Shown one piece after another: positions 33,557 through 60,879 of a DNA stretch of 64,000 nucleotides. The position numbers and the translations under genes are program-made. The notes beneath the pieces were generated by a model, which searched no databases, had not been told where the DNA came from, and saw only the letters and a list, made by a program, of their open reading frames with translations. The stretch is taken from assembly GCA_030390025.1 (NCBI GenBank), contig CM059431.1, forward strand, positions 95,544,001 through 95,608,000, read 5' to 3'. This DNA comes from Squalus acanthias (taxonomy: Eukaryota). Positions within the stretch are counted from its first letter, which is position 1. The number at the start of each line of letters is the position of its first letter.

Positions 33557-33942
33557 TATGATGCTATGATGAGTCTATTATGTGGCACTTTATCAAATGC
33601 CTTCTGAAACATCAACCGCACTACCCTCATCAACCCTCTCAGTTATTTCATTGAAGAATGCAATCAAGTTTGTCAGACATGACTTGCCTTCAACAAATCC
33701 ATGTTGGCTGTTATTTATTAACCCTTGTTCTTCCAAGTGAAAATTTAAATTTGCCCTGGATTATGGTCTCTTGATGTTTCCCCACCACCGTCGTTAGGCT
33801 GAATTACCTGTAGTTACCTCTTTTATCTAACTCCCCTTTTTTGAAGAAGAGTGTAACATTTGCAACCGTCCAGTCCTCTGGCACCACTCTCACATCCAAG
33901 TAGGATTGAAAGATTGTGGCCAAAGCCTCCACTATATAATCA

Positions 33943-36004: not shown

Positions 36005-36361
36005 CCCCACCTGAAGTAGAGTCATCCAGACTCGAGTCGTCGCTGGCTTGTTCTCTCTACACAGATGCGACCTGCTGTAATTTCCAGCAAAAAAAGTAAA
36101 ACATCTTTTTGTTTTCCATACAGACTCCAGCAGCTGCCACATTTGACCCATTGTGACCCCACCTCATTGTCTATGTTGTATTTTGCTATCGTCTTTGATG
36201 TAATGTCTTCCTGACTGACCTGGTTGGACACCATCCACACCTTTGATTGCCGTGATTGTCTCTCTGCCGAGATGTGATAAAGGACAGTTAGAAAGATTAA
36301 CTGTAGTTGTCTGGCATTGTTCTCTGACTATTTATGCGGTGCCCATATGTATTTCTTCACT

Positions 36362-36398
36362 TCACCTGACGAAGGAGCAGTGCTCTGAAAGCTTGTGA
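36362..36398 (+). ncRNA. Minimal type I hammerhead ribozyme in the Penelope terminal repeat
   Basis: TCAC-CTGACGA-A-GGAGC AGT GCTCT-GAAA-GC-TT-GTGA. Confidence 0.78.
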
Positions 36399-36580
36399 TT
36401 TCAAAATAAAGCTGTTGTGCGACTTCTCACTTTTGTCCACCCCAGTCCAACACCGGCATCTCCGCATCATATATAATCATAGAATGATAGAATGATAAAC
36501 CACTGAAGGAAGCCATCGGCCTATTGTGCCTGTTCCGGCTCTTTGAAAGAGTTATCCAATTAGGCCCACACCCCTGCTCT

Positions 36581-38080
36581 TTCATTTTTCAATCCTCTCT
36601 GGCTTCTGGTGTGGTGCCGGAGGACTGGAGGACTGCTAATGTGGTACCCTTGTTCAAAAAGGGAGAAAAGAATAGACCAAATAATTACAGGCCAGTCAGC
36701 CTAACCTCGGTGGTGGGAAAATTATTGGAAAGAATTCTGAAGGACAGGATAAATCTTCATTTAGAAAGACACGGATTAATCAAGGATAGTCAGCACGGAT
36801 TTGTTAAGGGAAGGTCGTGTCTGACAAACTTAATTTAATTTTTTGAGGAGGTAACAAGAAGGGTAGATGAGGGTAGTGCGTTTGATGTAGTGTATATGGA
36901 CTTTAGCAAGGCTTTTGATAAGGTTCCACATGGCAGACTGGTCATGAAGTTAAAAGCCCATGGGATCCAAGGCAAAGTGTCAAGTTGGATTCAAAACTGG
37001 CTCGGAGACAGGAAGCAGAGGGTAATGGTTGATGGGTGTTTTTGTGACTGGAAGGCTGTTTCCAGTGGGGTTCCGCAGGGTTCAGTACTAGGTCCCTTGC
37101 TTTTTCTGGTATATATCAATGATCTAGACTTGAATATAGGGGGTATGATTAAGAAGTTTGCAGATGATACTAAAATCGGCTGTGTGGTTGATACTGAAGA
37201 AGGAAGCTGTAGACTGCAGGAAGATATCAATAAATTGGTCAGGTGGGCAGAACAGTGGCAAATGGAATTTAATCCAGAGAAGTATGAGGTAATGCATTTG
37301 GGGAGGGCTAACAAGGAAAGGGAATACACATTAAATGGTAGGACACTGAGTAGTGTAGAGGAATAAAGGGACCTTGGAGTGCATGTCCACAGATCCCTGA
37401 AGGTAGCAGGCCAAGTAGATAAGGTGGTTAAGGCGGCATACAGAATGCTTGCCTTTATTAGCCATGGCATAGAATACAAGAGCAGGGGGGTTATGCTTCA
37501 ACTGTATAAAACACTAGTTAGGCCTCAGCTAGAGTACTGCATGCAGTTCTGGTCACCACCTTACAGGAAAGATGTGATTGCACTAGAGAGGGTACAGAGG
37601 AGATTACAAGGATGTTGCCAGGAGTAGAGAATCTTAGCTATGAGGAAAGACTGGATAGGCTGGGTCTGTTTTCCTTGGAACAGAGGAGGCTGAGGGGAGA
37701 CCTTATTGAGGTGTATAAAATTATGAGGGGAATAGATAAAATGGATACAGAGGATATATTTCCCTTAGCAGAGGGGTCAAAAACCAGGGAGCACAGATTT
37801 AAAGTAATTGGTGGAAGGTTTAGAGGGGATTTGAGGGGAAATTTCTTCACCCAGAGGGTTGTGGGCGTCTGGAACTCACTGCCTGAAAGGGTGGTAGAGG
37901 CAGAAACCCTAACCACATTTAAAAAGTACTTGGATGTGCACTTGGGATGCTGTAACCTGCAGGACTATGGACCAAGAGCTGGGAAGTGGCATTAGGCTGG
38001 ATAGCTCTTTGTTGGCTGGTGCGGACACGATGGGCCGAAATGGCCTCCTTCCGTGCTGTAACTTTCTATGATTCTATGAT
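36581..38080 (+). mobile_element. CR1 3' portion, same subfamily as 21.1-22.5 kb
   Basis: RT motifs and tail TTCTATGATTCTATGAT at about 38064-38080. Confidence 0.9.
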
Positions 38081-39800
38081 TTCCCCATAGCCCTGCAAAT
38101 TTTCACCCTTCAAATATTATTCCAATCCCCTTTCAAAAGTTATTATTGATTCTGCTTCCTGCACCCTTTCAGGCAATGCATTCCAGATCATAACTCGCTG
38201 CATAAAAACATGTTTCCTCATGTTACCGCTGGATATTTTGCCAATTTCCTTAAGTCTGTGTCCTCTGGTTACCAACCCTTCTGCCACTGGAAACAGTTTC
38301 TGCTTATTTATTCTATCAAGACTCTTCATGATTTTGAACACCTCTATCAAATCTCCCATTAACCTACGCTGCTCTAAGGAGAACAACCCCATCTTCTCTA
38401 GCCTCTTTACGCAATTGAAGTCTTTCATCCCTGGTGCCAGTCTTGTACACTTCCTCTGCATCTTCTCTAAGGCCTTGATATCCTTCCTAAAGTGTAGTGT
38501 CCAGAATTGGATACAATACTCCAGTTGGGGCCTAACCAGTGTTTTATAAAGGTTTAGCATAACTTCATTGCTTTTGTTCTCTATGCCTCTATTTATAAAG
38601 CCAACGATCCCATATGCCTTTTTAGCAGCCTTCTCAACTTATCCTGCCAACTTCAATGTATTTGTGTACATATAACCCCAGGACTCTCTGTTCCTGCACC
38701 CCCTTTAAAATTGTATCATTTAGTTCATATTGCGTCTCCTCACCCTACCAAAATGAATCACTTCACAATTCTCTGTTAAATTTCATCTGCCATGTGTCTG
38801 ACCATTTCACCAGTCTGTCTATGTCCTCCTGGAGTCTGTTACTATCCTCCTCACTGTTTGCTACATTTCTGAGTTTTGTGTCATCTGTAAACTTTGAAAT
38901 TATGCCCTGTATACCCAAGTCCAGGTTATTAATATATATCAAAAAGAGCAGTGGTCCCAACACAAACCCCTGGGGGACACCACCGTACACTCCCTCCAGT
39001 CTGAAAAATAACTGTTCACCACCACTCTTTGCTTTCTGTCCCTTAGCCAATCATGTATCCACGCAGCCAATTTTGTTATCTGCTAATTTTTTTCTCATAC
39101 ATTCTCTTTGCCCCTCTTGTTCATTTTTCAGTTCTCGTCTGCATTTTCTGTATTCTGCCTGATTCTCTACTGCATTACGAAACTGACATTTATCACAAGC
39201 CTCCTTTTTCTGTTTAATTTTAATTCCAGGGAGCTAGCTCTAGCTTTGGATGCTTTTCCTTTCCCCCTCATAAGAATTTATTTAGTCTGTACCCAAACTA
39301 TTTCATCCTTTAACCTTTGCATATTTACTGTTTTACCTGAAAATCTTTGTTTCCATTCCACCTGGACCCGATCCCTTTTCAACTCTCAGAAATTAGCCCT
39401 CTTCCAATTGAGTTGTCCTTTTCCACAACTACTCTAAACCTAATGATATTGTGAGTACTGTTTCTCAAATGTTCTCCCACGGAAACATGCTCCACTTTCC
39501 CCACTTCATTCCCCAGAACTAGATCCAGCTCTGATTCCTTCCTATGATCAAGAAAATTCTCTTGTACAATTCCTCCCCCTCCTTATCCTTTACACTGTTC
39601 CCCCGCCAATCTATATTAGGATAATATAAGTCCCCCGTTATCACTACTCTATTATTATTACATCCTCCTGAAATGTTCTTGCTGATTTGCTCCTCCATAT
39701 CCTTCCCACTATTTGGTGGTCTATAGAATACAGCCAGTAGTGTAACATCACCTGTTCTGCTCCTTAACTCTAACCAAATAGATTCTGTATTGAACCCCCA
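38081..39800 (-). mobile_element. Decayed CR1 fragments
   Basis: LYKTLVRPQLEYCIQFW, GVPQGFVLGP and FYRPPNSG on the minus strand. Confidence 0.8.
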
Positions 39801-40335
39801 TGCATAGATTCCCTTTCCAGGGCTGTAACAATGGTCCAGAACTTGCTGGAGCAAGGCATCTGTTATTTAGACATTTTTTCTCCACCCTCCAGCTCAAACA
39901 TTTTTTAACCGTAACTTGCTGGAAATGTGAGCTGATAATGGCAAGGAGAGGGCAATGAGGTATCTGGGACCTCAGTGAATAGTGGGACCAACAATGTATT
40001 AACTTAACCAATGAGATTGAAGGATTGAGAAAGATGATTGAGACAGAGGAACAATTGAGAAGGAGGGTGAATTAGAGTGAGTGAATTAGAGTCAAATCAG
40101 GTACAGAAAGAGAAATAAAGAGGGAAATAAATATTACAGAGAAAAAAGAGAAATAAAGGAAAAGAAAAAATATAAATATTTTAAATTTTACATCTCTAAG
40201 AACAATTTATCACCTGAAGGAAGGAGACTCCACAGTTTAAATTGTTCAATTCCTAGGCCTGAAATGTTGAATGGCATTACATTAACAATTATTATGTTGT
40301 TATAAAGGCATTTATGCTGTTAATTACCAGACTTA

Positions 40336-41228
40336 GGGGTAGAAATTAGGTCGCGCCCCATTTGGGGCGCAAATATCGTCTGGACGCAAATATTAGCGCC
40401 TGGCGCTAATTATCGGCACTGACTGGAAACTTCACTTTTACTGCCCCGGGAGGTGAGTGGAGCGCTAAAGCAGGCGCTGCACACCTGTCTTAAGGCGCAA
40501 AGGCCAAGGAGTGAGGCGCTAACTCAAAGCGCTGGCGAAGCTCATGTAATGTCAGTCAGCAATGGAACACACACACAATGGCACGGGCCAGTTCTTAAAG
40601 GGGATGGTTAATCTTGCTTTCCATCCACATCCTGTTCATTGCAGCCTTGAATCTCGGCCTGGAGAGACTTGCACATCAAATGTGCTGGAAAGAACAATGG
40701 AGAGTACCAGGCAAAGAGCTCAGAGTGCAGCTCCCACAGTCTCTGCTAAATCGATACAAGGAATGGCAAATCAAAATGAACCTGCAAAGTGCTGCTCAGT
40801 ACCCAAAACTCCTTCACACAACGTTGAATCTCTCCAGAAGTCTCTCCCTCTCTCTCTCAGAATGCATAGTTCAAAAATGCCACCAACAATAAAAGACAGG
40901 AAGAGGCCCCCTTTAAATAGCGCCACCCCCAGCCCCACAGCGATTGATAGCGTTCCAGTCTTCTGGTCGTTGGATGCGCCAGGCGGTAAGGCAGGGGGCG
41001 CCACTCAATTTCCGCTCCGGGGCGCCACAAGGGCGTTGCACCATGGAATGACGTCACAATCTGCGCGCGCAGGTGGTTGCAGCGGTAAGTTTTAGCGCCG
41101 CCGCACAATCTCAAGTTAAGTTCTCGAGCGGCGCAAACATCGCTGCGCCCGGGCGTTAGCGGCTTTGCGCCCCATTAGCGCCCTCTTAAGGCGCTAACGG
41201 GAGGCGCAACCAACTGAATTTTTACCCC
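40336..41228. mobile_element. Harbinger MITE family A, copy 3 (opposite orientation)
   Basis: TIR GGGGTAGAAATT / AATTTTTACCCC, with canonical TSD TTA at 40333-40335 and 41229-41231. Confidence 0.88.
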
Positions 41229-41239
41229 TTAGATTCATA

Positions 41240-43183
41240 GGCCGGGAAATTCGATAAGGCCTGAAAATGGGCGGGGCTCCACAGGGTAAGATTTGCTCGC
41301 GCCTGTTTAGAAAGCACAGGCAGCATGTTAATTTGGTGCAGCCTGCTAATTTAAATGATTTTAGTGCACAGCCCAGCAACTTTCGTGCTGCTGATAGGCT
41401 GTGCGCTCAGCAGGAGGCTGGATGACGCTGTATTTTCTTAAAGCAAGGCTGTCAGTTTTGAAGGCAGTCTCGAGCCCTTCAAGGTGAACTGTCTTCTGAA
41501 AAAAAATTAAAAATCATTGAATACTAGGCAGGCTCTAGCCCTTAACGCTGAACAACGTCGGCAAGAAAAAATTAAAAATTATTCCAAAATAGCCAGTCTG
41601 CAGCTCTTAACCCCCAGGACCTGGCTCCACTGACCAAAGAACTGCCTTCTGCACATAAAAAATGGTAAAGGTGCTTCAGCACTAACACAAATGGCTCAAC
41701 AGGCCAGTGAAAGGGCACCCAGGGTCTCAGACGCAGCACTCGAGCTTTGTGCAGAGGGTCAACACTGGGAGAGGTCCTCTACACACAGAGGACCTAGCCT
41801 CACCTCACCCCCTTGGTGGAGACAGTGCTGGCCATTCTTGGCTAAGGCATGGTTGAGCCCTTGGCTAGTGGCGGGACTGGAAGAATACAAGGTGCTGGTA
41901 TCCTCATATGTTATCCTCCTTCTCACATCCCACTTCCCCCTCATCCCACAATCTCTTCTGATTTACAAGCTGCACATGGTGTAAGCATGCACCTCTTGCT
42001 TTACCACCCCACCCTCCCCTTAACCTTGCGCCTTCCTCATTTCAGACACCCAAGAAATCTAGCCTGCCCAGCCAGTGGTTGACCAAAAAGAGGGAGAGGA
42101 GAGCGAAGAAGAAGAAGGAACAACGTCACTCGATTTCACCCTCCCAGCTACCAACTCCTCAAGGTCGTCCTGCAAGGCTATCTGCAACGTCCCCCACTGA
42201 AAGTCAGCAGCCTTCCACCAGCCATGTTGCAGTCACTGGGGTAGCACTAGAATAGGCAAGGCGGACACAAGACAGTCACTAAGGGAATGCACAAGGGTGA
42301 TTAGTTGATTTTTTGATGTAATATTGGATACATATATGGATAAAGTTGGATTGGAAAGTTTGGTTTGTTGTGGCTTTTATTTCAGCATTGTGGCCAAGAG
42401 GACGCTGTGATGGTCAGTAACAGAGGGAAGGGAAGGTGTGGGACAAATGTTGAAAGGGGAATTGAGGTTGTGGTCTCTGGGACCGCAGGTGGATGATTTG
42501 AAACCAGAGATTCCGGTCAGAAAGGGGCTTTCTGGGTTGACTCCTTCCTTCTGTTTCTTCCTCTTCTGCTTCATCCTCTTCTACTTCCTCCTCCCTCTGC
42601 AAGCAGCTTGTCCCCTTTGCTGCCTCTGTTGCATTTCCATGTGATGCTGCAGCCCAAGGAGGACTGCAAATAGAGCCCCCAGGATTTGGAGCAAGTGGTG
42701 TTCTCAGAGGTCTCCCTTTCTTTGCAAACGTCCAGCAGCACTCCCTGCACACTTTAACAACATTTTAAATGTATTGCACTAAGCCACTACGCCAATAAAA
42801 TGTAAAAAGTCCAAATGCAAAAATCTAAACTTACCTGAAAGTTGTGTGTGTCCCTTTAAGAAGTACTGACAGTGTTTCTGTTATACTGCTGCATGCACGT
42901 TCTTCCGTGCGTGGTTTGGAGAGGTTAAAAGCAATGACGTTGAAAATCACAGATTGTGCGTCAATTCAGGCGTTCCACACAGATTGACGTCACGATCTAC
43001 ATCATTTACATGTAGATGATGTCACGATCTCCGGGGCGCAGGAGATCGAGGCGGTAAATTCCGACCATGGAAGTTCACAGGCATCGGTAATTTCGCCGCG
43101 CCCGGTCGGTAAGCCCTTAGCAGCCCGTTCTCACCCCCCCGGAGGCGCTAATGGGAGGCGCAAAGGAGGCCAATTTCTCCCCC
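41240..43183. mobile_element. Internally deleted Harbinger related to 14944-18195
   Basis: Myb start MAQQASERAPRVSDAALE and segments homologous to 15.8-17.3 kb. Right end AATTTCTCCCCC resembles the MITE A terminus. Confidence 0.72.
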
Positions 43184-43760
43184 TAGGAGTCATAAATATA
43201 AGATAGTCACTAATAAATCCAACCAGGAATTCAGCAGAAACTTCTTTACTCAAGAGAATGGTGAGAATGTGGAACTCGCTACCACATGGAGTGGTTGTGA
43301 CGAATAGCATAGATGCATTTAAGGGGAAGCTAGATAAGTACATGAGATAGAAAGAAATAGAAGGATATGTTGATTGGGTTAGATGAAGTAAATAGAGTGG
43401 AAGGAGGCTCGTGTGGTGCATAATCACCAGCATAGAACCATTTCACTGATAGTCCTGTTTCTGTGCTTTCAATTCTATGTAATTAAGATATTCACAGATG
43501 GAGGCCATTCAGCCTAACCTCAATTAAATCTCCCCTTAAGCTTCTCTGCTCTAAGGAGAACAATCCCAGATTCTCAGTCTCTCCACGTAACTGATGGCCC
43601 TCATCCCTGGTATCATTCTGGTAAATTTCCTCTGCACCCTCTCCAAGGCCTTGACATCATTCCTAAAGTGTGCTGCCCAGAATCGGACACAATACTCCAG
43701 CTGAGGCCTAACTACTGATTTATAAAGGTTTAGCGTAACTTCCTTGCTTTTGCACTCTAG

Positions 43761-46700
43761 GGGCCCGATAATAACTTGGAGTCAGGAAGGGAGCGGGGAA
43801 GAAGGAATTGCGGATTGGAAACCGTAAGTAAGAAATTCCCGCAATTCCTGCCGAATTTAACAGCAGGACCTGTTTTAAATTATCTCAACAGCTTCCAGCC
43901 CGACAGTCAGCCAGATTGAAAGGCTGGCTCTCTGTCGGGATGGAAAGCAGCTGGGTAGCGGACATAGCGGGGGGTGGGTGAATCGGACATCTGGAGGGTG
44001 TGGAAATTGGGTGCAGGGGAGGAATTCGAACAAAGCTTTTTACATTAGTGGTTTGGTATTTTTCAATTTGATCATAATCAATGGGTTGGAATATAAACAG
44101 GATAACAAATAGGTTTCATTGTACAAAACAAAAATCTTAGCTGTTTGGAGGAAATGAATAAGTATATAGTTCTGTAGAACTGATGGCAGTGTACTCTGAT
44201 TATTGCGAGGATCACTTAGGTTCCACCAGAGCACCCATCTAACAACCACATGCAAAAGCACCTTTTGTGCTACCCTCCACCCCCCACAATGCCACTAACA
44301 CAAAGCAGCCCTGCGAACAACCAAACATCCCTTTCACAGCCTCCCATTGGTTGCTGTCAATTCATGTCTTCCCATTCATCATCAAACAACTGAAAAGGCC
44401 ATTTACCAGCCAGCAACCCAGAATTTGGCAAGACGGCAAAGTGGTGCAAAAGAATAATATTTATGTGCTTCAAATACACAGCAGAAACTCAACAATATAA
44501 CAATGTCTAACGCACCCATGTGCATACCCTCGTGCAACTACAAATATTTACTCTTCCTTTTCCTAGCGCTTCTATGTGGTGCAACCTCTGTGGTTTCAGC
44601 CAAGGTAGAGGCAAGCTACTCAGATCCCTGCTCAGACTGTTGAGTTGCTCTTGGCCGATGTCCTCTGGGTTTTGAAGCCTGTGATGGCACCACCTGTGCA
44701 GGGGCAGACTCGGCCATCGGGACATGAAGCAGCACGTCGGGTACTGAGTGGGGGGGGCAATGGGTGAGAGGTGGAAGCGCCTTGTGCGGAGTCCCAACTT
44801 CCATATCCCCTTTTGCCATCATCCCTCTCATGGCCCAGCCTCACTTCCCTGCTAGCAATGAGCTGCAAATCAGTGGGGCGATGAACGGCCAAGGCTAGGG
44901 TATCGTTCATCCTATTTAAGGTGGCATCCAGAGTGTGCAAGCCATTGTTGAACGCCTGCATGTACTCTTTTGATTTCCGCGTTTGATGCTCCATGCAGTT
45001 AGCCACTCCATCCATGGAAGAAGACATCATCGCAAAGGCCTGCGGTAGCATGTCACTTATGCTGGAGACGGACTCCTCTAATCTCTCTGCAATCGTGTAC
45101 AGTGCGCTTGGAGCGCCTGTCAGTACAACGCACATTCTCTGCTGCTGCTCAATAAGTATCCTGGTCATTGACGGCCCCTGGGGTACAGCATCTGTGTCCA
45201 GCTGAGCAGAGCTTGGAGAGTCCTGCGCCCTCTGACACAGACTCTCCACTACTGTCCCTGACTCTGCCGTCTGCTCTTGCTCACTTGTGAACTGCAAGTC
45301 ACCATGTGAAAGCCAACCATCTCTCTAACCACTACCACTGAAGTGCGAGTAAAAAAAAGACTTGCATTTATATAGCGCCCTTCACGACCACCGGACGTTC
45401 CAAAGCGCTTTACAGCCAATGAAGTACAGTCACTGTTGTAATGTAGGAATGTGGCAGCCAATTTGCACACAGCAAGCTCCCACAATCAGCAATGTGATAA
45501 TGACCAGATAACCTGTTTTAGTGATATTGGTTGAGGGATAAATATTGGCCAGGACACTGGGGATAACTCCCCTACTCTTCTTCGAAACAGTGCCTGAGAG
45601 AGCAGACTTGGTTTAACGTCTCATCTGAAAGATGGCACCTCTGATGAGTGTCAGCTTAGATTTTTGTGTTCAGGTCTCTGGAGTGGGACTTGAACCCACA
45701 ACCTTCTAACTCAAGAGGCGAGAGTGCTACCAACTGAGCCACGGCTGACACACCATTTTGAGCTGGTGCATGGTTTGCATAATTCCTGTGATGGTGAACC
45801 CTCAGAGGGAGTGAGCTCCTCTGAGGAGTTGTCGTCATCGTGGGCGACCTCGACCACCTCCTGATGGATGTGTGAAGGCCCTGTGAGAAATAAAAGACAT
45901 GAATGAGACTGTCAAGATAAGAATGTTTGAAGTTATCATTATGCATATGATCATATTTCACTCGCTGTTGACATGAAGTCATCATGACTGAGTGTTGAAT
46001 GCCATGTGGTTGTCTGATATTTAATTCTGTCACCAGGTAGCTGATAGGCCCCCATCTGTCCATCTCTGACGGTCAGGCATGCCGAGACTCCGCTGATCTC
46101 CAGCTGACCTCTGTAGCTGAATCTGTGGAGAGCCTCTGGTTCTCTGCCTCTCCCTGTAATGGCATGTGTTCACCCGATGGATGGAGAGCATTTGTTGAGG
46201 GTAATTACGATGGATAGGCATGACATTGCATAAGGATGAAGGAGAGTATCAGTGGTGGATGGATAGATGGGGATGTGAAGAAGTGCACAGACAGAGAGGG
46301 ATGGGTGCATTTTCAACGTAAGTTGGTGTGAGAGTGATGTGCTGGAGTAGGCTTGAGAAGGCAGAGTGAGGAGGTTGGAATAATACGCACATCAGGGTGT
46401 AGGGCAATGTGCCATTGCTCTCACCTGACCTGCCTAAGTCATTGAAGCGCTTCCTGCATTGGATCTAGGAGCTTGCCACCACGCTCCTGCTGATGACCTC
46501 CTTGGCAACATCTAACCACAACTTCTTTGTCTTAGCAGCAGGCTTTTTCCTCCTGTTACTAGGGAACAGTATCTTCCTCCAGGTCCTCACAGCCTCCAGC
46601 AACACATCCAAGGAGGCGTCCCAACTCGATTCTAACACTTCTTTCTCTCCCCATGACAACGCCGACTGCTTCAACTTCCATGCTTGGAGTGTCCCTTTAA

Positions 46701-46902
46701 ATACTAGAGTTGAGATCGTGTCATGCGGATCGTCATCATGCCCGCTGACGCTAATTGGACAGGAAACCCAGAAGTAAAATGATAATGAGGTGGCTGAGTT
46801 AAAAAGTCACTGACAGATGCACTGCACATATTTCCGGGTTTCCCAAGTGCTTTCGGTCCCCTCTCCCCACTCCCAGCGCGTCTGCGCATTAACATCCTGC
46901 CC
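43761..46902 (-). mobile_element. Decayed Harbinger with Myb gene on minus and no clear transposase
   Basis: Contains DASLDVLLEAVR...KKLWLDVAKEV...CRKRFNDL. The exon 3 region (44.5-45.9 kb) is homologous to 5.1-6.0 kb. The left boundary is uncertain. Confidence 0.7.
45350..45752 (-). mobile_element. Deu-domain tRNA SINE, second copy, inserted in the Harbinger Myb exon
   Basis: Homologous to 12893-13365. A box TGGCTCAGTTGG and B box GGTTCAAGTCC on minus. Confidence 0.8.
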
Positions 46903-48040
46903 ATAGAGTCTACCGCGCAGAAACAGGCCATTCGGTTAAACTGGTCTATGCTGGTATTTATGCTCCATACGAGCCTCCTCCCACCTCTCTTCATCTAACG
47001 CTATCAGCATATCCTGCTATTCCTTTCTCCCTCACGTGCTTACCTAGCTTCCCCTTAAATGCATCTATGCTATTCCCCTCAACTACTATGAAAGGTTTTG
47101 ATAGAGTAGCTAGAGAGAGAGTGTTTCCACTTGTGGGGGAAGAGCAAAACTAGAGGCCATCAATGTAAGATGGTTACCAAGAAATCAAATAGGGAATTCA
47201 GAAGAAACTTCTTTACCCAGAGAGTGGGGAGAATGTGGAACTCGCTACCACAGGGAGTGGTTGCGGCGAACAGTATAGATGCATTTAAGGGGAGGCTAGA
47301 TAAGCATCTTCTAAGAAGAAGAAGAGATAAGCATATGAGAGAGAAGGGAATAATGGGTTATGCTGATAGAGTTAGATGAAGAAAGACGGGAGGAGGTTCA
47401 AGTGGAGCATAAATGTTGACATGGACTGGTTGGGCCGAATGGCCTGTTTCTGTGCTGTATATCCCATGTAATTCTATGTACTCTTTGTGGTAGTGAGTTC
47501 CATATTCTTACCATATTTTGAGTAAAGAGGTTTCGCTTGAATTCCCTACTGGATTTATTGGTGACTATTTTATATTTATAGCCCCTAGTTTTGGTCTCCC
47601 CACAAGTGGAAACAATTTCTCTACGTCTACCTTATCAAATTCCTTCATAATTTTAAAGACCTCTATCAGGTCACGCCTCAGACTGTTTTCTAGTAAAAAG
47701 AGCCCCAGCCAGTTCAGCCTTTCCTGATAAGTATATCTTTTCAGTTCTGGTATCATCATTGTGAATCATTTTTGCACCTTCTCCAGCACCTCTATATCCT
47801 TTTTATAATATGGACCAGAACTGTGCACAGTACTGTAAGTCTGGTCTAACCAAGGTTCGATACACATTTAACATAGCTTCTCTGCTTTTCAATTATATCC
47901 TCCAGGAATGAACCCCAGTGCTTGGTTTGCTTTTGTTATGGCCTTATTAACCTGCCTCACTACTTTTAGTGCTTTGTGTATCTGTACCCCTAGGTCCTTT
48001 TGCTCCTCTACTGCATTTAGGCTCTTATTATCCAAGCAAT
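46903..48040. mobile_element. Short CR1 3' fragments in both orientations
   Basis: Contains FFTQRV..WNSLP and CR1 tail sequences. Confidence 0.7.
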
Positions 48041-50170: not shown

Positions 50171-50249
50171 ACAAAAGATCTTTCCCTTTTCAAGGGCTGT
50201 TGCTGGTTAACGTGTACCAAAAGTCCATACCAAAAGAAATGTGGCTTAC

Positions 50250-50349
50250 CAGTAGCGGACTGTCCTTTTCTGTCCTGGAGTTTGAAATATTCTGCATATG
50301 GAAGGCAAGAATAGATTCTGCTTGTCCCTTCAGGACAGCTTCTGCGGCC
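50250..50349 (-). CDS. BCL9: BCL9 100-bp coding exon (C-terminal half of HD1)
   Basis: AAEAVLKGQAESILAFHMQNISNSRTEKDSPLL matches the BCL9 HD1 segment. Acceptor TTTTTCTGACTATAG| and donor CTG|GTAAGC. Ends in phase 0, in frame with the exon starting at 11957. Confidence 0.92.
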
Positions 50350-51399
50350 CTATAGTCAGAAAAAGAAAATAAACTCCTTACAATTAGCAATAGCGCATTC
50401 ACATCAAAAAACCTGCTTAGAAAAGAACTTAAAGGTGATGTCTTACTGCAGATTGAAGGCTAAATCAGTTATGCTCCCTGAAGTGGCAGCTTGGACATCT
50501 GATCACTGATGACATGCAGGAAAATGTGTATTGGTAAGATTTTTTGCCAATGGAACATCGCGCATAAACATAAGAATAAGACTGACTCCTGCCCAGGGTA
50601 CAGATTAATATTGTTTTGTAATTCATTAAATTCAGGAACCGAAGGCAGCTGCTGCCTACATGTGAAAGCTATATATTTTATAGCAATTCAAATTGTGGAA
50701 TCAGCATCGTGATTGTTGGTTATTTACAAATTAGTGGACCCACATTCTTTTGCGGGGGTGGGGGGGGGGGGAAGTTAATTCTAAATCCTGATAAACTGAA
50801 ATTAATTTAGCATCAACTTTACTCAAGGCCAGAATCCACAATAAATCAATTTAACAAATCAGTTTAATCAGTTAAATAAATCAGTTTAACTTGCATCCTG
50901 GTTGTGTGCTTTATGTGGCATATACAGAATAATTATCATTTAATTGCTAACTGGTTTCAAAGTGATAGGCTATTGGAAACATAAATTACCCCATTAACAG
51001 GATCCTTATGCCGATAAATAGGAGCCCTAACTTTCTGCGGCAAGTTTAATTTGTATTTACAGCGCAAATACAGCTATTTCTTAACACTCATGGGGTGGTT
51101 GATGCTGATCTCCCGTTGTTGCAAGGCTAACGGGGGAGCGTCCAGCAATTTGCGGCCATTCACAACTCACGCCGTATCTCTTCCTTGCCACAAATTGCTG
51201 GATATTTTACACAACATGCAACTTCAACTTACCGTTATTTTGCCAGCAAATTCTGGCCCAAGATATTTAAATTAGGGTCCTGCATTTTCCATTTTGGACC
51301 ACCCTGTGCTTCACTCCCCCTGTGCTGACCTCATAAATCACAATGTGGTACTAACCAGCATGAAAGCCACCTCACCAGTGCTATTTAATGACATCATGC

Positions 51400-52535
51400 A
51401 ATACTTACAGGTTAGGTGCTAGTTTAGTATTTCTTGCTACTGTTTCTTGGTGTGTTGCATCACTCTGGAAAGTTCATTTTGTCTGCACAAAGAGTGGTCT
51501 TGCAGTGCTTTGGTACTTTGCCTCACAAATGGTCTGGCTGTAGACAGGGGTGGTCTGGTAGGGCTGCCTTTGGGGCTGGAGGACGAGGGAGAGCAGCAAG
51601 GAAGACACTACAGAGCAGGAGGATCTGCCAGAGGAGGGAGGAGGAGGAGGGCACGTAACATGAGGCCATATCCACAAAAGGTCTGCAGGGAGCAAGTCTC
51701 CTACATCAGCTTTACTGAGGAGCAATGTATTAGGCCACTTCGCTTCACCAAGGAGGATGTCACTGAGCTATGTCACCTGCTGCAGCCACAGCTCCAGCCT
51801 CAAACCGAGGCATGGACAACACTGCCTGTGGTCACCATAGCTGTTAACTTTTACACCTTTCAGGCTGCAACAGCTAACATCAGCAACATCTCACAGTTCG
51901 CAGTAGACAATCTATCAGGGAGATCACTGAGGCTCCTCTACACCTAGAGAAACACTTACATCTCCTTCCCTTTTGACAAAGCAAAACAGGACGAGAGAGC
52001 ACTAGGTTTTGTCCATATGACAGGCTTCCCCACTGAGCAAGGTGGCACTGACTGCACACACATTGCCTTGCATACTCTTTATCGCCAGCCTGGCATCGTT
52101 ATCAATTAAAAGGGACTTTACTACCACATTTTACAACCACAAGGAGAACATCATGCGGGTCTGTGCCCACTATCCCGGCAGCAGTCATGACTCTTCCATC
52201 CTGCGCCAGTCCTCTGTGCTGACTTTATTTTAACCGGGCCGCCAAGTTACAGGCTGGCTATTGGGCAACAAGGGGTAGTCACTCCATGGTTCATAACTCC
52301 AGTTCGGAAACTGGAGAGCTGGCCTATAACGACAGATATTCAGCCACAATAAACATCATCGTTCTCATGCAACGCTTCACTGCCTGGACTGTTCCAGAGG
52401 AGCTATGCAGTACACCACTGAGGAGGAATTCAGATTTGCCATTGTCTGCTACATGCTCCAGAACTAAGTCATCATGAGGCATCAACCCTTACCAACACCT
52501 GGGCAGCAACAAGTACAGATGGTGGGGGAGGAAGG
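51400..52535 (+). pseudogene. Decayed Harbinger transposase
   Basis: Contains RPYPQKVCREQVSY..FTEEQCIRPLRFTKEDVTELCHLL, HYPGSSHDSSILRQS and GWLLGNKG. Confidence 0.75.
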
Positions 52536-52542
52536 ATCATAG

Positions 52543-52803
52543 TGTTGAGGCTGCCGCGAAACACGAATGGAGGCTGAATCCATATGTGGAAAACAAGAAA
52601 CTTTTATTCACTGCATGGCACACAAAATGGCTGAGCTAGCTGCTCCCAGAATTCTCTGGAAAAACTCCCAGAATTCTCTGGGTAAAACCTGAGGCCCCGC
52701 CCCCTTCTGCCTTAAAGGTAAGGTGCCTTAAAGGGGAAGGTGCTGAAATTTGTCCACAAACGGAAGAGTGGATTCTGCCCGTTTTAGGTGGCGATCCGCC
52801 ACA
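52543..52803 (-). repeat. 3' LTR (261 bp)
   Basis: Three differences from the 5' LTR by eye. AATAAA on minus at 52613-52618. PPT GGGGGGAG lies just inside at about 52806-52814. Confidence 0.95.
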
Positions 52804-52823
52804 CAGCTCCCCCCAGAATCCGC

Positions 52824-55800
52824 TTAGGAGGTGTGGACGAGACGGTGTGGCGGTCTGATGGGCCGGCCGGAGCGGCTCTTGTAGGACGCCGGTGGACGTG
52901 GAACGGCCGGGCGTGGAGCAGCCGGGTGAACCGGCTTGAGGACAGGTCGGCCGCGTGGAGGTGGACGAGCTACAGGGACCTGCTCCCCGGGCTCCGAGTG
53001 TGCTGGCTTGAGTCGGTCCACCGACACTTTTTCGGTCCTGTCGCCCACTTGCAGGGTGAAAAATTTGTCCCCAGCCTGCAGCACCTTGTAGGGCCCGTCA
53101 TACGGGGGTTGAAGGGGTCCGCTGTGGGCGTCGTGCCGGACGAAAACAAACCGTGCCTGGTGCAGGCTTAGTGGGACGTGTGAGGTGGATTCGCCGTGTT
53201 GGGTAATGGGCACTGGGGCGAACTGCAGCGCCGGTGAGGCGAAGTCGTGGCGTTGCTGGTCGGCTGACCAGGGTGTCGTGGCGGTGGGCAGGAACTCGCC
53301 GGGTACGCGCAGCGGCTGACCGTACACGAGCTCTGCTGCCGATGCGTGGAGGTCTTCTTTAACCGCGGTGCGCAGGCCGAGGAGGACCCACGGAAGTCGG
53401 TCGGTCCAGGCGCCGTCTTGGAGGCTGGCTCGAAGAGATGCCTTCAAGGATCTGTGGAACCGCTCACACAGTCCGTTGGCTTGGGGGTGGTACGCTGTGG
53501 TGCGGTGGATGGTCACCCCGAGATTGCGTGCGACGGCGGTCCAGAGCTCAGAGGTAAATTGCGGACCTCTGTCCGAAGTCATGTCGGAGGGGACGCCGAA
53601 CCGTGCGACCCAGGTGCTGACGAAGGCTCTGGCGATGTCGGCGGTGGTGGTAGAGGTCAGTGGAATTGCCTCAGGCCAGCGTGTGGTGCGGTCAACGATG
53701 GTCAGCAAGTGCATGTGGCCTTGCGACGGCGGCAGGGGCCCGACGATGTCCACGTGGATGTGGTCGAATCTCCGTGAGGGGACGGTAAACTGTTACTGTA
53801 CCTTGGCCCGTTGGCAGGATAGGCAGGAGTTGGCCCAAGTACGCACATCCTTGCGAAGGCCGCGCCAGACAAAGCGGTTGGCTACCAATTTGATGGATGC
53901 GCGGGCGCCGGGGTGTGAGAGGTTGTGGAGAATGTCGAATACCCGGCGGCGCCAGGACGCTGGGACGACGGGCCGAGGTTGACATAGGGATATGTCGCAC
54001 TTGACCATGACTGCGGTCGGGCCACAGGCGACGTCGGCCAGGCGTAGCCCTGGTAGGTTGGTGGGTGCGGAGAGCAGATCCGGGTCGGTGATCTGGTCTG
54101 CTGCGAGTTGAGCGTAGTCGACTGCTAGGTGTGCAGCGTGGATGGCGGGGCGGGAGAGGCAGTCGGCTACCACATTGTCTCGGCCGGAGACGTGTTGGAT
54201 GTCCGTGGTGAACTCGGACACTGCCGCGAGCTGCCGCTGCTGCCTGGCGGACCATGGGTCGGTTGTCTTTGCCATTGCGAATGTCAGGGGCTTGTGGTCG
54301 ACAAACGCAGTGAAGGGGTGGCCCTCAAGCAAAAACCGGAAATGGCGGACCGCCAGGAACAGCGCGAGGAGCTCGCGGTCGAAGGTGCTGTACTTGACCT
54401 CCGGGGGGCGTAGTTGGCGGCTGAAGAAGGCAAGTGGTTGCCAGGCGCCGTCAACCCACTGCTCATACACGGCGCCGACCGCGTGGTCGGAGGCGTCCGT
54501 GGTGAGCGTTACCCTGGCATTGGGCCGTGGGTGCGCGAGCAGGGTGGCGTTGGCGAGCGCAGTCTTGGTGGAATCGAAGGCGGCGGACGCGTCTGCCGTC
54601 CATTCGACCGCCATCTTGCTGCTCCTGTCCCAGAGGGCTTCATACAGGGGCCTCATGAGGGACGCCGCTTTGGGGATGAAGCGGTTATAGAAATTCACCA
54701 TCCCGAGGAACTCCTGGAGGCCATTGATGGTGGTGGGGCGGGGAAATTGTTGGACGGCCTGCACCTTGGTGGGCAGGGGAATGGCCCCAGCATGGGTGAT
54801 GTGGTGGCCGAGGAAGTCGATCTTGCCCAGGCCGAACTGGCATTTGGCTGGGCTGATGATGAGCCCGTGGTCGCTGAGGCGCCCGAACAGGATGCGAAGG
54901 TGTTCGAGGTGTTCCTGCTTGGAGTAACTGGCTAACAGGATGTCGTCCAGGTAGACGAACAGGAACTTCAGGTCCCGAAGGACCGAGTCCATCAGCCGTT
55001 GGAATGCCTGGGCCGCGTTTTTGAGGCCGAAGGGCATCCGCAGGAACTCGAACAGGCCGAAGGGGGTGATTACGGCCGTCTTGGGGACGTCCGCAGGGTG
55101 GACGGGGACTTGGTGGTAGCCGCGCACCAGGTCGACCTTGGAAAAGACTGAGCGGCCGGCCAGTCTAGCCGAGAAGTCCTGGATGTGTGGCACGGGGTAC
55201 CGATCAGGGGTGGTGGCGTCATTGAGGCGGCGGTAATCCCCGCAGGGGCGCCAACCTCTGCCTGGTTTGGGGGCGATGTGGAGTGGGGAGGCCCAGGGAC
55301 TGTTGGAGCGACGGATGATGCCAAGCTGTTCCATGGTGCCAAACTCGGTCCGCGCGATCTCCAGTTTGGCCGGGTCCAGCCTGCGGGCGTGGGCGTACAC
55401 TGGGGGGCCTGTGGTGGGGATGAAGTGTTCCACCCCGTGTTTGGCGGCCTCCATGGAGAAGGTCGGATTGGTAAGGGCCGGGAATTCGGCCAGGAGTGCC
55501 GAGTAGTCATCCGTGGCCCGGGCGTGGCACTGTGACGCCATGTCGGCGGGTTGACGGGGGGCCATGGCGCCCAGGATGGGGGACATGGTGTTCATGTCCA
55601 CGAGGCGGTGATGAGGGATGTCTACCAGTAGGCCGTGGGCGCACAGGAAATCTGTGCCGATGAGGGGGGAGAGCACCTTGGCAGTGATGAACTCCCATCG
55701 GTAGCGGTGACCAGCGAGGTCGAGGGTAACTGTCCGGGTGCCATACGTCCGGATTTCCGAGCCATTAGCAGCAGCCAGCGCCGGTCCTCGTTCGCCCTTT

Positions 55801-56615
55801 TGGATGTTGAGGGAGGAGGCCGGGATGATGCTGTGCTGAGCCCCAGTGTCGCACAGGAACCGGCGGCCGGTTTTGTCATCCGTGACGAACAGCAGGGAGC
55901 CCGCGTGGCCCACGGCCATCGCGGGGGCTGGAACGGGGGTGGACTTGAAAGAGCAGGGAGGTGTGCACCGTTGTGCCCTGGCACCGAACCGTGCATGGTA
56001 GTAACAGTGGCCCGGGTTAGTGGGGCGCGAAGGCCCCGTGGGCCTGGTGACAGGCCCTTGTGGCCGCGTGCTGGATGGTGAGGGGCGCGCCCAGGCATTG
56101 GCTGCCAGGTCCAGAGTGACGTCGCGGCTGGAGTGAGCGGACAGCAGCTTGTCGGCCTCATCGGCCAGGGCTTCCAGGTTCGTGAGGCCGGACGCCACGA
56201 TCTCTGGGCGGATGCTGAGAGGGAGCTGGCGGATGAACAGCGTGCGGAAGAGGGATCCGGGTGGGCTCTCGTCGGTGAGGGAGAGCATGTGGGAGAGGAG
56301 GTCTGACGGTGAGGCATCACCGAGGCCTGGAAGGTCGAGGAGGTGGTAGTTTCGCTGATATGCCGAGGCCGTAAATCTTTGAAGGAGTGCTGTCCTGAGG
56401 TGTGCGTACTTGCCTTCCTCTGGTGGGTTCTGCAGCGTTGTCCAAACCTTGGAAACTGTGGCGCTACTGAGTGATGTGACGAGATAGTCGTACTTCGTCC
56501 CATCTCTGGTGATATTTCGCAGCCGGAAGCGAGATTCAGCTTGGAGAAACCAGGCTTCGGGCTGGTTTTCCCAAAACTCCGGCAGTTTCACGGAAACTGC
56601 ATTCGTGTCTGCTAT
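52824..56615 (-). pseudogene. Single gag-pol ORF with one in-frame stop and a probable ATG-to-ATA start
   Basis: Contains NAVSVKLPEFW (gag), LCDTGA (protease), YLDD (RT), TTDASD (RNase H), HHCC and SDRGPQF...ERFHR (integrase). A TAA at 53793-53795 separates two same-frame ORFs. Confidence 0.9.
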
Positions 56616-56640
56616 TGCAGTGCTCGGAATACGTTCTGAG

Positions 56641-56654
56641 CGTCGGGGTCACCA
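56641..56654 (-). promoter_or_regulatory. Primer-binding site complementary to tRNA-Trp
   Basis: TGGTGACCCCGACG lies 1 nt after the 5' LTR and matches the known tRNA-Trp PBS start. Confidence 0.85.
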
Positions 56655-56655
56655 A

Positions 56656-56917
56656 TGTTGAGGCTGCCGCGAAACACGAATGGAGGCTGAATCCATATGT
56701 GGAAAACAAGAAACTTTTATTCACTGCATGGCACACAAAATGGCTGAGCTAGCTGCTCCCAGAATTCTCTGGAAAAACTCCCAGAATTCTCTGGGTAAAA
56801 CCTGAGGCCCCGCCCCCTTCTGCCTTAAAGGTAAGGTGCCTTAAAGGGGAAGGTGCTGGAAATTTGTCCACAGACGGAAGAGTGGATTGTGCCCGTTTTA
56901 GGTGGCGATCCGCCACA
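56656..56917 (-). repeat. 5' LTR (262 bp)
   Basis: Direct repeat of 52543-52803. Confidence 0.95.
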
Positions 56918-57950
56918 ATAGAATCATACAGCACAAAAGGAGGCCATTCGGATCCTCATGCTTGTGCTGGTTCTCTGAAAGAGCTATCGAATTAGTCCCA
57001 CTACCCTGCTCTTTCCCCAAAGCTCAGCAAAGTTTTACTTTTCAAGCATTTATCCATTTTCCTTTTGAAAAATACTATTAAATCTGCTTTCACCACCCTT
57101 TCAGGCAGTGCATTCCAGAAAATGACAACTCACTGAGTAAAAAAGTTTCTCTTCATCCCCCCCCCCCGGTTCGTTTGCCAATTACCTTAAATCTGTGTCC
57201 TCTGGTTACCGTCCCTCCTGCCAGCGGAGACAGTTTCTCCTTATTTACTCGATCAAACCCCTCATCATTTTCAACACCTCTGTTAAAGCTCCCTTTATCC
57301 TTTTCTGCTCTAAAGTGAACAATCTGAACTTCTCTAGTTTCTCAACATAACTGAAGTCTGTCATCCCTGGAACCATTCTAGTAAATCTCCTCTGTACCCC
57401 CTCTAAGGCCTTGACAGCCTTCCTAAAGTGTGGTGCCCAGAATTGGACACAATACTCCAGCTCAGGCTTAACCAGTGATTTATAAAGGTTTAGCATAAAT
57501 TCCTTGGATTTATACTCTATGCCAAGGATCACATATGCATCTTTTAACAGCCTTATCAACTTGTCCTGCCACCTTCAAAGATTTGTGCTCATATACCCCC
57601 AGGTCTCTCTGTCCCTGCACCCCCTTTAAAATTGTACCATTTAGTTTATATTGCCACTCCTCATTCTTCCTTCATAGGAATGCATTACTTCACAGTTACC
57701 TGCATCAAATTTCATCTGCCATGTGTCTGACCATTTCACCAGTCTGTTTATGTCCTCCTGAAGTCTGCTAGTATCCTCCTCACTGTTTACTACATTTCCG
57801 AGTTTCATGTCATCTGCAAATGTTGAAATTATGCTCTGTATACCCAGTCCAGGTCATTAATATATATCAAAAAGAGCAGTGGTCCCAATACCGACCCCAG
57901 GGGAACACCACTGTATACTTCCCTCCAGTCTGAAAAACAACCGTTCACTG
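56918..57950 (-). mobile_element. CR1 3' fragment whose tail hosts the Gypsy element
   Basis: Tail ATCATAG|AATCATACAGCAC is split by the Gypsy element. Contains LYKSLVKPELEYCVQFWAPH. Confidence 0.85.
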
Positions 57951-58159
57951 CTAGCTTTTCAAACGTCGGACTACTCTAATCCCATTTCCTCGTCCTATCA
58001 TGGTATTCTCCTTTTAAATGTTGTTACATTCTGGACACTAAATTTAAAATCTGTTATGTGGGCTGCCGTTGGTAACAGGTACTGTGGGGTATAAATTTGT
58101 CTTGGTCGGTAGTGCAAAACAGGCAATAGCAAATCGCCAGGCCACCTGGACTGGGTATA

Positions 58160-59505
58160 CAGAGCATAATTTCAACGTTTGCAGATGACACGAAACTCGG
58201 AAATGTAATAAACAGTGAGGAGGATACTAGCAGACTTCAGGAGGACATAAACAGACTGGTGAAATGGGCAGACTATTCTAATTGAATTTTTTGATGAAGT
58301 AACAGGGAGGATCGATGAAGGGAATGCAATGGATGTTGTCTACATGTATTTTCGGAAGGCATGTGACAAAATACCACATAGAAGGCTGGTTAACAAAATT
58401 GAGGCTCATGGAATAGGTGGGTCAGTAGCAGCTTGGATAAGGGATTGGCTTAAGGACAGAAAACAGCGAGTTGTGGTAAATGGCTGCTTTTCAGACTGGA
58501 GATGGTAGACAGTGGTGTTCCCCAAGGGTCAGTGCTGCGGCCACTGCTTTTTTTGATATATATAAATGACCTGGATATTGGAATACAGAGTAGAATTTCT
58601 AAATTTGCCGATGACACCAAACTTGGAGGTGTGGCAAACAGTGATGATGATACCAATTGACTGCAACAGGACATAGAAAGGCTAGCAGAATGGGCAGACA
58701 AGTGACAGATGGAATTTAATACAGAGAAGTGTGAGGTGATGCATTTTGACAGAAGGAACAGGGAGAGGCAATATACACTTAATGGCACAGTTTTAAAGAG
58801 TGTGCAGGGATAGAGGGACCTGGGAGTTACTGTGCCTAGGTCCCTGAAGGTGGCGGGACATATTGAGAGAGTGGTTAGAAAAGCATATGGGATCTTGGGC
58901 TTCATAAATAGAGGTATTGACTACAAAAGTAGAGAAGTAATGCTGAACCTTTATAAAGCGCTGGTTAGGCCACAACTGGAGTATTGCGTCCAGTTCTGGT
59001 CACCACACTTTAGGAAGCACCTGAGAGGGTGCAGAGGAGATTTACCAGACTGTTTCCGGGGATGGGGGATCTTGACTACAAGACAGGTTGGAACAGCTGG
59101 ATTTGTTTTCATTAGAGCAAAGGAGGTTGCGGGGTGATTTGATAGAGGTGTACAAGATTATGACGGGTTTGGATAGGCTAGACGGGGAAAGGCTGTTCCC
59201 ACTAGTTGGTGGTACAAGGACTAGGGGACACAGATTTATGGTTTGGGCAAGAGATACAGGGGGGATGTGAGGAAAAACCTTTTTACGCAGCGAGCGGTCA
59301 GGACCTGGAATTCGCTGCCGACGGAAGTAGTGGAAGCGGAGACACTCAATGTTTTCAAGGGGAGACTGGATAGGATCTTGAGTGAAATAATCTTGCAGGG
59401 CTACGGGGATAGGGCGGGGGAATGGGACTGACTGGATTGCTCTACAGAGAGCCGGCATGGACTCGATGGGCCGAATGGCCTCCTTCTGTGCCATTATGAC
59501 TCTAT
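58160..59505 (+). mobile_element. CR1 fragments ending in a 3' tail
   Basis: Contains FADDTK and LYKALVRPQLEY. Tail ATTATGACTCTAT. Confidence 0.85.
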
Positions 59506-60314
59506 GGGGGAGAAATTCAGTATCGCCCCATTTGGGGTGAATTATCGGCCAGGCGCAAAGATTAGCGCCTGTCACTAATTATCGCCTCCGACTGCAAACT
59601 TGGCTTTTATCGCCCCTGGAGGTGATTGGAGCGCTAAATCAGGCGCTTCACACCTGTCTTAAGGCGCAAAGGCCGAGGAGCGAGGCACTACCTCAGAGCG
59701 CTGGCGAAGCTCATGTGATGTCAGTCAGCAGTGGAACACAGACACACTGGCGCCGGCCAGTTCTTAAAGGGGAGGTTCGATCTTGCTCTCCAGCCACACC
59801 CTGCCCATTGCAGCCTTGAATCTCGGCCTGGAGAGACGTGTACATCAAATCTGTTGGAAAGAACAATGGAGAGGACCAGGGAAAGAGCTCAGAGTGCAGC
59901 CCCCATATTCTCTTCTAAATCGATGCAAGGAAGATCAAACCAGAATGAACCTGCAAAGTGCTGCTCAGTACCCAAAACTCCTCAACACAGCGTGGTGCAA
60001 AGGTTTCGCCGACAAAAAAAGGCAGGAAGCGGTCGCCTTTAAATAGTGCTCCCCCAGTCCCATCCTGACTGCAAAACGCTCCCCTCAACCTGTTGTTGCT
60101 AGCGGTAGGACAGGGGGCGCCACTCAATATCCTGTCCGGGGCATTACCGGGGCGTTACACTCTCGACTGATGTCACGATCGGCCGGCGCAGGAGATCGTG
60201 GCGGTAGTGTTTAGCGCCGTCGCAAAATGTCTAGTTAATTTTGTGAGCGGCGCAAACATCGCCGCGCATGGGCGCTGGTTGCTTTGCGCCCCATTAGCAC
60301 CCTCTTATACCCCT
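59506..60314. mobile_element. Harbinger MITE family A, copy 4 (right end partly deleted)
   Basis: Starts GGGGGAGAAATTCAGTATCGCCCC directly after CTAT and is homologous to 40336-41228. Confidence 0.85.
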
Positions 60315-60531
60315 GTATATCTGGAGTGCTGCTCGGCTGTTCCAGTTGCATCACGAGTGATACATTTTGGTCAGAAGAATGAGGAGAGGCAATGTAAACC
60401 AAAGGATACAATCCTGAAGTGGGTGCATGAACAGAGATACCTGGTGGTATATGTGCACAAATCGTTGAAGGTGGCAGGGCAGGTTGAGAAAGCAGTTAAA
60501 AAAGCATATGGGATCTTGGGCTTCATAAATA

Positions 60532-60860
60532 TAAATCAGAAGTCGCACAACACCAGGTTATAGTCCAACAGATTTATTTAATTTTACAAGCTTTCGGAGC
60601 TGTTCGCTCCTTCTTCAGGTAAGGTAGCTGTGAGAGAATCTCCCAGAATTCACAATATAAACACAGAAAAAATCTATTCAAATCTTTCCCTACATCAAAG
60701 ACACACTAAGAGCACAGCCAAGACAATGAGATGTGTCCCAGGGGGTCCAACGTGTCAAAACACCTGCTGGCTTGTAAAATTAAATAAATCTGTTGGACTA
60801 TAACCTGGTGTTGTGCGACTTCTGATTTTTGTCCACCCCAGTCCAACGCCGGCATCTCCA
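60532..60860. mobile_element. Penelope terminal-repeat remnant with internal inversion
   Basis: Homologous to about 36360-36469. Flanked by CTTCATAAATA at 60521-60531 and 60861-60871. Contains a 59-bp inverted repeat. Confidence 0.8.
60584..60622 (-). ncRNA. Minimal type I hammerhead ribozyme
   Basis: Minus strand reads TTAC-CTGAAGA-A-GGAGC GAACA GCTCC-GAAA-GC-TT-GTAA. Confidence 0.8.
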
Positions 60861-60879
60861 CTTCATAAATAGAGGTATA

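Follow-up and report, generated by a model that had tools for sequence, protein, structure and literature searches.

Two short sequences in opposite orientation within a 64,000-nucleotide stretch of the Squalus acanthias genome (contig CM059431.1, positions 95,544,001 to 95,608,000; this whole stretch is referred to below as the window) raise the question of what a hammerhead ribozyme fold is doing there, and whether a double base change in one of its stems reports selection on that fold. We find that both sites are very probably minimal type-I hammerhead motifs (min-HHRs), i.e. motifs with no helix III, located in the terminal repeat region of a Penelope-like element (PLE) family that was recently very active; their cleavage is predicted from published work on PLEs. 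The evidence consists of the motif itself, its pairing, its position after an open reading frame (ORF) with reverse transcriptase (RT) and GIY-YIG similarity, the copy number, and hallmarks of PLEs. The two sites are:

36362 to 36398, plus strand: hammerhead motif copy 1, minimal type-I, stem I UCAC/GUGA, called from the sequence and our own covariance model R1.
60584 to 60622, minus strand: hammerhead motif copy 2, minimal type-I, stem I UUAC/GUAA, called from the sequence and model R1.

Both copies follow one layout: a 4-bp stem I, CUGANGA, a bulged A, a 5-bp stem II, GAAA, the palindrome AGCU and a U, after which the predicted cut falls. In copy 1, read on the plus strand, TCAC (36362-36365) is followed by CTGACGA (36366-36372), the extra A (36373), GGAGC (36374-36378), the loop AGT, GCTCT (36382-36386), GAAA (36387-36390), GCTT (36391-36394) and GTGA (36395-36398). 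Copy 2, read on the minus strand, consists of TTAC (60622-60619), CTGAAGA (from 60618), the extra A, GGAGC, the loop GAACA, GCTCC, GAAA, GCTT (up to 60588) and GTAA (60587-60584). The cut is predicted 3' of U17, at 36394/36395 in copy 1 and at 60588/60587 in copy 2. The two copies differ in four respects: pair 2.3-1.3 (C-G versus U-A), N7 (C versus A), loop II, and position 11.1 (U versus C, giving G.U versus G-C). The original prediction had reported the stem I double change, the AAGCTT palindrome kept by both copies and exactly these remaining differences, and all of this stands. Between the copies, 31 of 39 motif positions are identical, while the 146 nt upstream cannot be aligned (0.61 identity versus 0.60 in shuffles).

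Chance resemblance is excluded for the motifs in the window. A simple pattern, CTGANGA-N8-30-GAAAGCTT, matches twice in the window against 0.06 matches expected, and none of 100 shuffles reached two. A descriptor demanding every pairing matches four times, at copies 1 and 2 and at two motifs of a second hammerhead family described below; none of 300 block shuffles gave any match. Model R1 scored copy 1 at 62 bits and copy 2 at 60.4 bits, both sites being part of its training set, and across the window it returned no further degenerate motif copies: the four strong matches were all training-set members and the rest had E-values of 0.18 or worse. The sites had been rightly identified as hammerhead motifs.

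The surroundings of copy 1 indicate the kind of element to which it belongs. On its 5' side lies a long coding region, and the motif separates the 3' untranslated region (UTR) from the end of the element:

33940 to 36004, plus strand: PLE ORF in two frames (33940-34986 and 34535-36004), called from sequence motifs and homologues.
36005 to 36361, plus strand: PLE 3' UTR, from the stop codon to the motif.
36399 to 36470, plus strand: PLE 3' terminal sequence, long form with the optional extension, with AATAAA at 36405-36410.

The ORF is frameshifted, with at least one frameshift between its two frames, and contains YIRYIDD as its RT motif, a Cys/His cluster and a stretch that reads VVYLIRC...YIGET. 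A total of 294 relatives reach an E-value of 1e-5 or better, the closest of which (72-91% identity) are named from sharks. These relatives bear RVT_1, DUF8422 and HTH_animal, the distant ones also GIY-YIG, and ORF residues 384-487 align with a stretch of one relative, P0088, that Pfam calls GIY-YIG. A PDB sequence search with the window ORF gave no match, and a protein atlas provided leads only, in the form of clusters with RVT_1, GIY-YIG and HTH_animal at a score of 0.93. An RT followed by a GIY-YIG domain in a single ORF, as judged here by homology, is the architecture of a PLE. Since the motif begins 360 nt past the stop of this ORF, about 75 nt before the 3' end of the element, copy 1 sits in the PLE 3' repeat. 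The end of the element was placed near 36470, where contigs of public sequencing runs show loose ends. No upstream terminal repeat or second motif for copy 1 was found at 33250-33960. Three further observations concern this region. The tail of copy 1 is without 17 nt (at window 36411-36420, between CTGTTG/GTGTTG repeats) that are present in 27 of the 29 other copies of a sample selected by protein, described below. Summed word depth over the optional tail (window 36425-36466) was 4-10 times that over the hammerhead and 20-50 times that over the upstream UTR, in contigs from three runs of different organisms; the tail of about 40 nt is accordingly common to many more repeats. Finally, a palindrome-rich repeat of about 300 nt that is not PLE lies next to both PLE copies (33258-33559, plus strand, and 60877-61177, minus strand; 82% identical).

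Copy 2 belongs to a 5'-truncated element that is joined head-to-head to a third, partial copy:

60623 to 60769, minus strand: PLE 3' UTR 5' of copy 2, 147 nt, the element being 5'-truncated at the junction.
60533 to 60583, minus strand: tail of copy 2, short form without the optional extension.
60770 to 60871, plus strand: third, partial copy, inverted relative to copy 2, running from the motif GCTT through the long tail.

The junction lies at 60769/60770, the third copy starts 4 nt before the predicted cut, and 59 nt of it are 100% identical, in inverted orientation, to 60533-60591. Such an arrangement recurs across the fetched loci, where 20 of 30 adjacent PLE copy pairs are head-to-head. 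Only 6-43 nt separate the cores in 8 of these 20 (minus, plus) pairs, and in three more pairs the motif itself contains the junction. The partial tandem or inverted copies typical of PLEs are found here in this head-to-head form. Often the joints are within the hammerhead motif, or upstream of it by a few to about 20 nt (loci L011, L017, L020, L023, L026, L085, L087 and L088, and window 60769/60770); none of the junctions seen falls at the predicted cut.

Across the window's own 3.71-Gb assembly, the exact pattern of this family has 39,656 matches (19,993 + 19,663), and its reversed control none. A protein search with the GIY-YIG end gave 53,630 first-look candidates, of which 150 were scored; these are 94-100% identical and mostly without stops, indicating that the PLE family was recently active. 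In a sample of 30 PLE copies picked by protein alone, the strict hammerhead core was present in 28, located 275-565 nt into the 3' UTR. Of the two others, one has G8 changed to T and one has unrelated sequence at that place. Two classes of 3' end were seen among 95 copies, one lying 54-63 nt and the other 96-102 nt past the G of GCUU; they match the "optional 30-40 bp tail" of PLEs described in PMC11167929. One copy (L057:1192-1233, minus strand) has a GIY-YIG end 97% identical to that of the window, yet a 3' UTR of the U-A type with C at position 17; its sequence points to a modular exchange of 3' ends between subfamilies.

We then come to the base change itself. With the rest of the motif exact, whole-genome counts for pair 2.3-1.3 of stem I are 27,437 copies with C-G and 8,355 with U-A, against 154 with C.A and 402 with U.G. 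The mixed forms total 556, and the four forms together account for 36,348 of the 39,656 matches, the remainder varying at the three flanking positions. Each of the two Watson-Crick forms is fixed in a large subfamily, and the mixed ones resemble single-hit decay. The counts are of copies and measure amplification, not evolutionary events. The C-G to U-A swap marks two subfamilies of source elements and leaves the helix intact. As two transitions on one pair, it is suggestive, not significant.

Stem II provides a second series. At pair 10.5-11.5, C-G is found in 39,656 copies, U.G in 1,825, U-A in 2,003 and C.A in 910. The U.G and U-A forms are clear subfamilies, and the C-G, U.G and U-A series is the classic wobble-pair route; CpG decay of the AGC-loop form accounts for much of the C.A class. 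We computed pair statistics over 49 distinct motifs, 46 of this family and three of the second, with shuffle and slide controls. In this alignment 97.4% of cells are paired, versus 88.9% in shuffles and 29-50% with slid partners; 9 of 11 pairs change on both sides, and none of 500 shuffles reaches any of these measures. These figures include loci chosen by patterns that fix stem II (L001-L030 and L061-L090, the latter by patterns that also fix part of stem I), three second-family rows chosen by a regular expression that fixes stem II, and two rows kept with a stem I junction; most of the both-sided changes trace to about three splits. The core columns (CUGANGA, GAAA, U16.1 and H17) are invariant or at least 90% conserved. 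In stem I, 93.4% of cells are paired, the stem having 4 bp in the window copies and 3 bp in the CUAC subfamilies. The closing pair 10.1-11.1 is G-C in 41 rows, G.U in six and A-U in two. The palindrome 15.2-16.2 (AGCU here, ACGU in the second family) is complementary in all 49 rows, with no helix III or loop 3, and an extra unpaired A between A9 and 10.1 is present in 120 of 120 descriptor hits, in both families.

On the model of published PLE min-HHRs, two copies of the motif, on one long transcript or on two RNAs, would pair through AGCU into an extended helix III, forming a double hammerhead. The RNA would then be cut 3' of U17 (after GCUU), by analogy with published elements probably weakly and probably with the aid of the element's own protein, and cutting would release element RNA from longer transcripts. 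The minimum free energy (MFE) structure of the monomer forms exactly stems I and II, and the nested cofold MFE structure of the dimer is a trivial domain-swapped duplex. The explicit double hammerhead, with stems II in cis and AGCU and stem I in trans, is feasible and predicted to be no more stable than two monomers. Of 24 public runs, all in contig form and most only presumed to be RNA, the four that were mapped showed no RNA ends. Among the runs, the one true RNA library contains five contigs, one of them across an uncut motif, which has no bearing on cleavage.

A number of observations weigh against this identification, or against the selection and activity associated with it, and we consider them together. 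Firstly, database models did not recover the site: an Rfam scan gave no match at the gathering score and none at E-values up to 10 on both 361-nt pieces, which we attribute, by inference, to the missing helix III, and Pfam gave no match on the window ORF itself even at an E-value of 10, so that the RT and GIY-YIG calls rest on homologues. Secondly, the calculated energies give the dimer no advantage (-15.5 / -20.5 kcal/mol for the double hammerhead versus -19.4 / -23.0 kcal/mol for two monomers), and PLE min-HHRs, assayed in vitro as dimers or trimers, cleave themselves at a low level (PMC4209133); the weak dimer prediction fits this low published activity. Ribozyme mutants are reported not to impair insertion in vitro (PMC11167929). 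Thirdly, conservation of the motif in the youngest family barely exceeds that of its flanks (0.90 versus 0.75-0.93 per 20-nt bin). Fourthly, one origin is enough for the stem I swap, which taken alone is one event: on a tree of 91 copies with pair 2.3-1.3 masked the label needs three changes, and when all 35 U-A copies are kept as one group, the tree has a likelihood above that of the free search and is not rejected (p-AU 0.975). In addition, position 2.4 is C in many U-A copies, and the resulting C.A mismatch reduces helix I to 3 bp (23 CTAC versus 26 TTAC descriptor hits, overlapping loci counted). Lastly, 699 copies with the main stem II carry a CCGA core, and CCGA-core subfamilies have been amplified to hundreds to thousands of copies. 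The original prediction had concluded from the stem I change that the structure was under selection in the source elements. This survives in part: the fold does look constrained, as the large stem I subfamilies, the stem II series and the second family indicate, whereas the double change cited for it may be one event, and C.A and CCGA subfamilies were amplified.

The CCGA copies lead to the strongest alternative, namely that the fold is retained chiefly for its role as a structural signal in the 3' module, for example for binding of the PLE protein or its positioning next to the sites where reverse transcription starts, self-cleavage being dispensable or vestigial. The position affected, U4, is a conserved and important position of the hammerhead core. 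By hand count, CCGA is the core of about 80 among the first 100 U-A stem II matches listed and of about 62 among the first 100 U.G matches listed; these subfamilies were amplified while stem II was adjusted from U.G to U-A. Copies of this type have stem II GGAGU/ACUCC or GGAGU/GCUCC, e.g. L018:71-112 (minus strand) and L085:1135-1176 (plus strand), and some head-to-head pairs read CCGA in both arms. That the conserved block comprises the motif plus the tail, and not the motif alone, also speaks for a structural signal, as do the dimer's lack of a thermodynamic advantage and the findings of PMC11167929, which comprise, besides the neutral mutants, cleavage that requires protein and no RNA-seq reads ending at the cut site. 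The same paper shows, for the Anolis element, that protein-assisted cleavage depends on C3 and G8. Moreover, all core positions (CUGANGA, GAAA, U16.1 and H17) are kept in two families with wholly different stems, a shared core that a pure protein-binding hairpin would not easily explain, and for each CCGA copy there are more than ten with CUGA. We therefore regard this alternative as unlikely, if the most serious of those considered. The bolder proposal that selection in this genome may act on the shape of the hammerhead fold in the PLE 3' module, and not on its catalysis, is a doubtful one. It is prompted by the CCGA lineages, which were amplified yet had stem II repaired from U.G to U-A, and by the clustering of head-to-head junctions no more than a few nucleotides from the motif. 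If it were true, the folded motif rather than cleavage could set where reverse transcription stops or switches template.

Improbable in our view is a second alternative, that copies of this family are mostly non-autonomous "non-LTR retrozymes" spreading as small circular RNAs, and not ends of autonomous PLEs. An ORF is indeed absent from most genomic copies, which are short 3' fragments, and from copy 2 in the window; a 2026 preprint (10.64898/2026.07.22.740005) traces vertebrate retrozymes to PLE terminal repeats and reports them in one cartilaginous fish. The only hint of a tandem or circle is one contig joint going back 104 in one run. Against this, the motif lies directly downstream of a PLE ORF in copy 1 and in the 28 protein-selected copies noted above, and short direct tandem arrays were not seen among the 30 adjacent pairs, of which four are direct repeats, all 1.4-3.0 kb apart. 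The retrozyme description suits the second family better. It is represented in the window by two comparators:

21599 to 21635, plus strand: second-family minimal hammerhead (stem I AGUU/AACU, stem II AGGUC/GACCU, palindrome ACGU).
29814 to 29850, plus strand: second-family minimal hammerhead, second copy.

This family has the same core and architecture, while the helix III palindrome, three pairs of stem II and every one of the four stem I pairs are changed, and it counts 41,735 exact-pattern copies in the genome. Its motif lies about 100 nt from the 3' end of an ORF-less element of about 350 nt (21385-21733 and 29600-29950, plus strand), which fits the retrozymes of the preprint (363 bp) better than the family of copies 1 and 2 does. 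Set against a 95-97% identical LINE paralogue at 36844-36861, the copy at 21345-21733 is seen to have inserted into a LINE copy.

Chance resemblance within a young repeat, with conservation reflecting merely the youth of the copies, can hardly be credited: within the young family, motif and flanks are about equally conserved, and one event may account for the stem I swap, but the full descriptor separates the window (four matches) from 300 shuffles (none), two unrelated-looking families satisfy every constraint, and the PLE architecture is documented across animals (PMC4209133).

The PLE-terminal min-HHR reading thus has three consequences. The annotation of both sites is fixed as PLE ends, not free-standing ribozyme genes. 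The expansion is very large: in a 3.7-Gb genome, exact-pattern copies number about 40,000 for this family and about 42,000 for the second. And the variant series, with its CCGA cores and wobble intermediates, is a large natural mutational set bearing on whether PLEs need catalysis or fold.

The remainder of the window is vertebrate-like and packed with retroelements, with a CpG observed/expected ratio of 0.445. LINE-type RT stretches at 21091-22800 and 36582-38036 are 92-97% identical over more than 1 kb and are a recent duplication or two young insertions. A 951-aa pol frame of an LTR retrotransposon (RVT_1, RNase H, an integrase zinc-binding domain and DUF7041) occupies 53793-56648 on the minus strand. 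The only clear host coding sequence seen is an exon with a long open frame and a BCL9 domain (Pfam E-value 1.4e-19) at 9561-11957, also on the minus strand.

How do the motifs compare with known systems? Canonical type-I animal hammerheads, such as Schistosoma Sm-alpha and newt satellite 2 (Rfam Hammerhead_1), have the same catalytic core, an open helix I, a short palindromic helix III region and a proposed action as dimers. Unlike the window motifs, which have neither feature and no Rfam match, they possess a real helix III stem-loop and loop-loop tertiary contacts. Animal non-LTR retrozymes (10.64898/2026.07.22.740005) are hammerhead-bearing, ORF-less repeats related to PLE ends, reported in one cartilaginous fish with a mean unit of 363 bp; the present family differs from that description in being attached to an autonomous ORF and in not being seen in short tandem arrays. 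The Poseidon element PAc of Anolis carolinensis, as described in PMC11167929, is an RT and GIY-YIG PLE with a hammerhead in its repeat and an optional 30-40 bp tail giving two 3'-end classes. Its motif overlaps the ORF start, whereas here the motif lies 360 nt past the stop and the window copy is without an upstream repeat, and protein-assisted cleavage was shown for PAc, whereas cleavage here is predicted.

The closest match is with the min-HHRs of metazoan PLEs described by Cervera & De la Peña in 2014 (PMC4209133), who published hammerhead motifs in PLEs, their dimer-prone architecture and compensatory variation. A literature search combining hammerhead ribozyme, shark and retrotransposon returned no paper describing this family; the supplementary lists of that study may include cartilaginous fish. 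The window family differs from those described there in its 5-bp helix II (7-8 bp in the Schistosoma families, 6 bp in Drosophila virilis), in its exact-pattern copy numbers (39,656 + 41,735 with the second family, versus about 4,000 in coelacanth and about 9,000 in Xenopus), in its shark-like host and in the frequency of CCGA-core subfamilies. In common with them, it is of type I with no helix III or loop 3, has a palindromic 15.2-16.2, a 4-bp helix I, an unpaired nucleotide between A9 and 10.1 and a G10.1-C11.1 pair, is located in a PLE terminal repeat, and occurs as thousands of mostly solitary copies, with opposite-strand pairs and subfamilies that show compensatory changes. Judged from sequence, every listed feature of metazoan PLE min-HHRs is thus present in the window motifs, cleavage being predicted. 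Their membership in a PLE, which the original prediction had missed, places them among motifs of a known kind.

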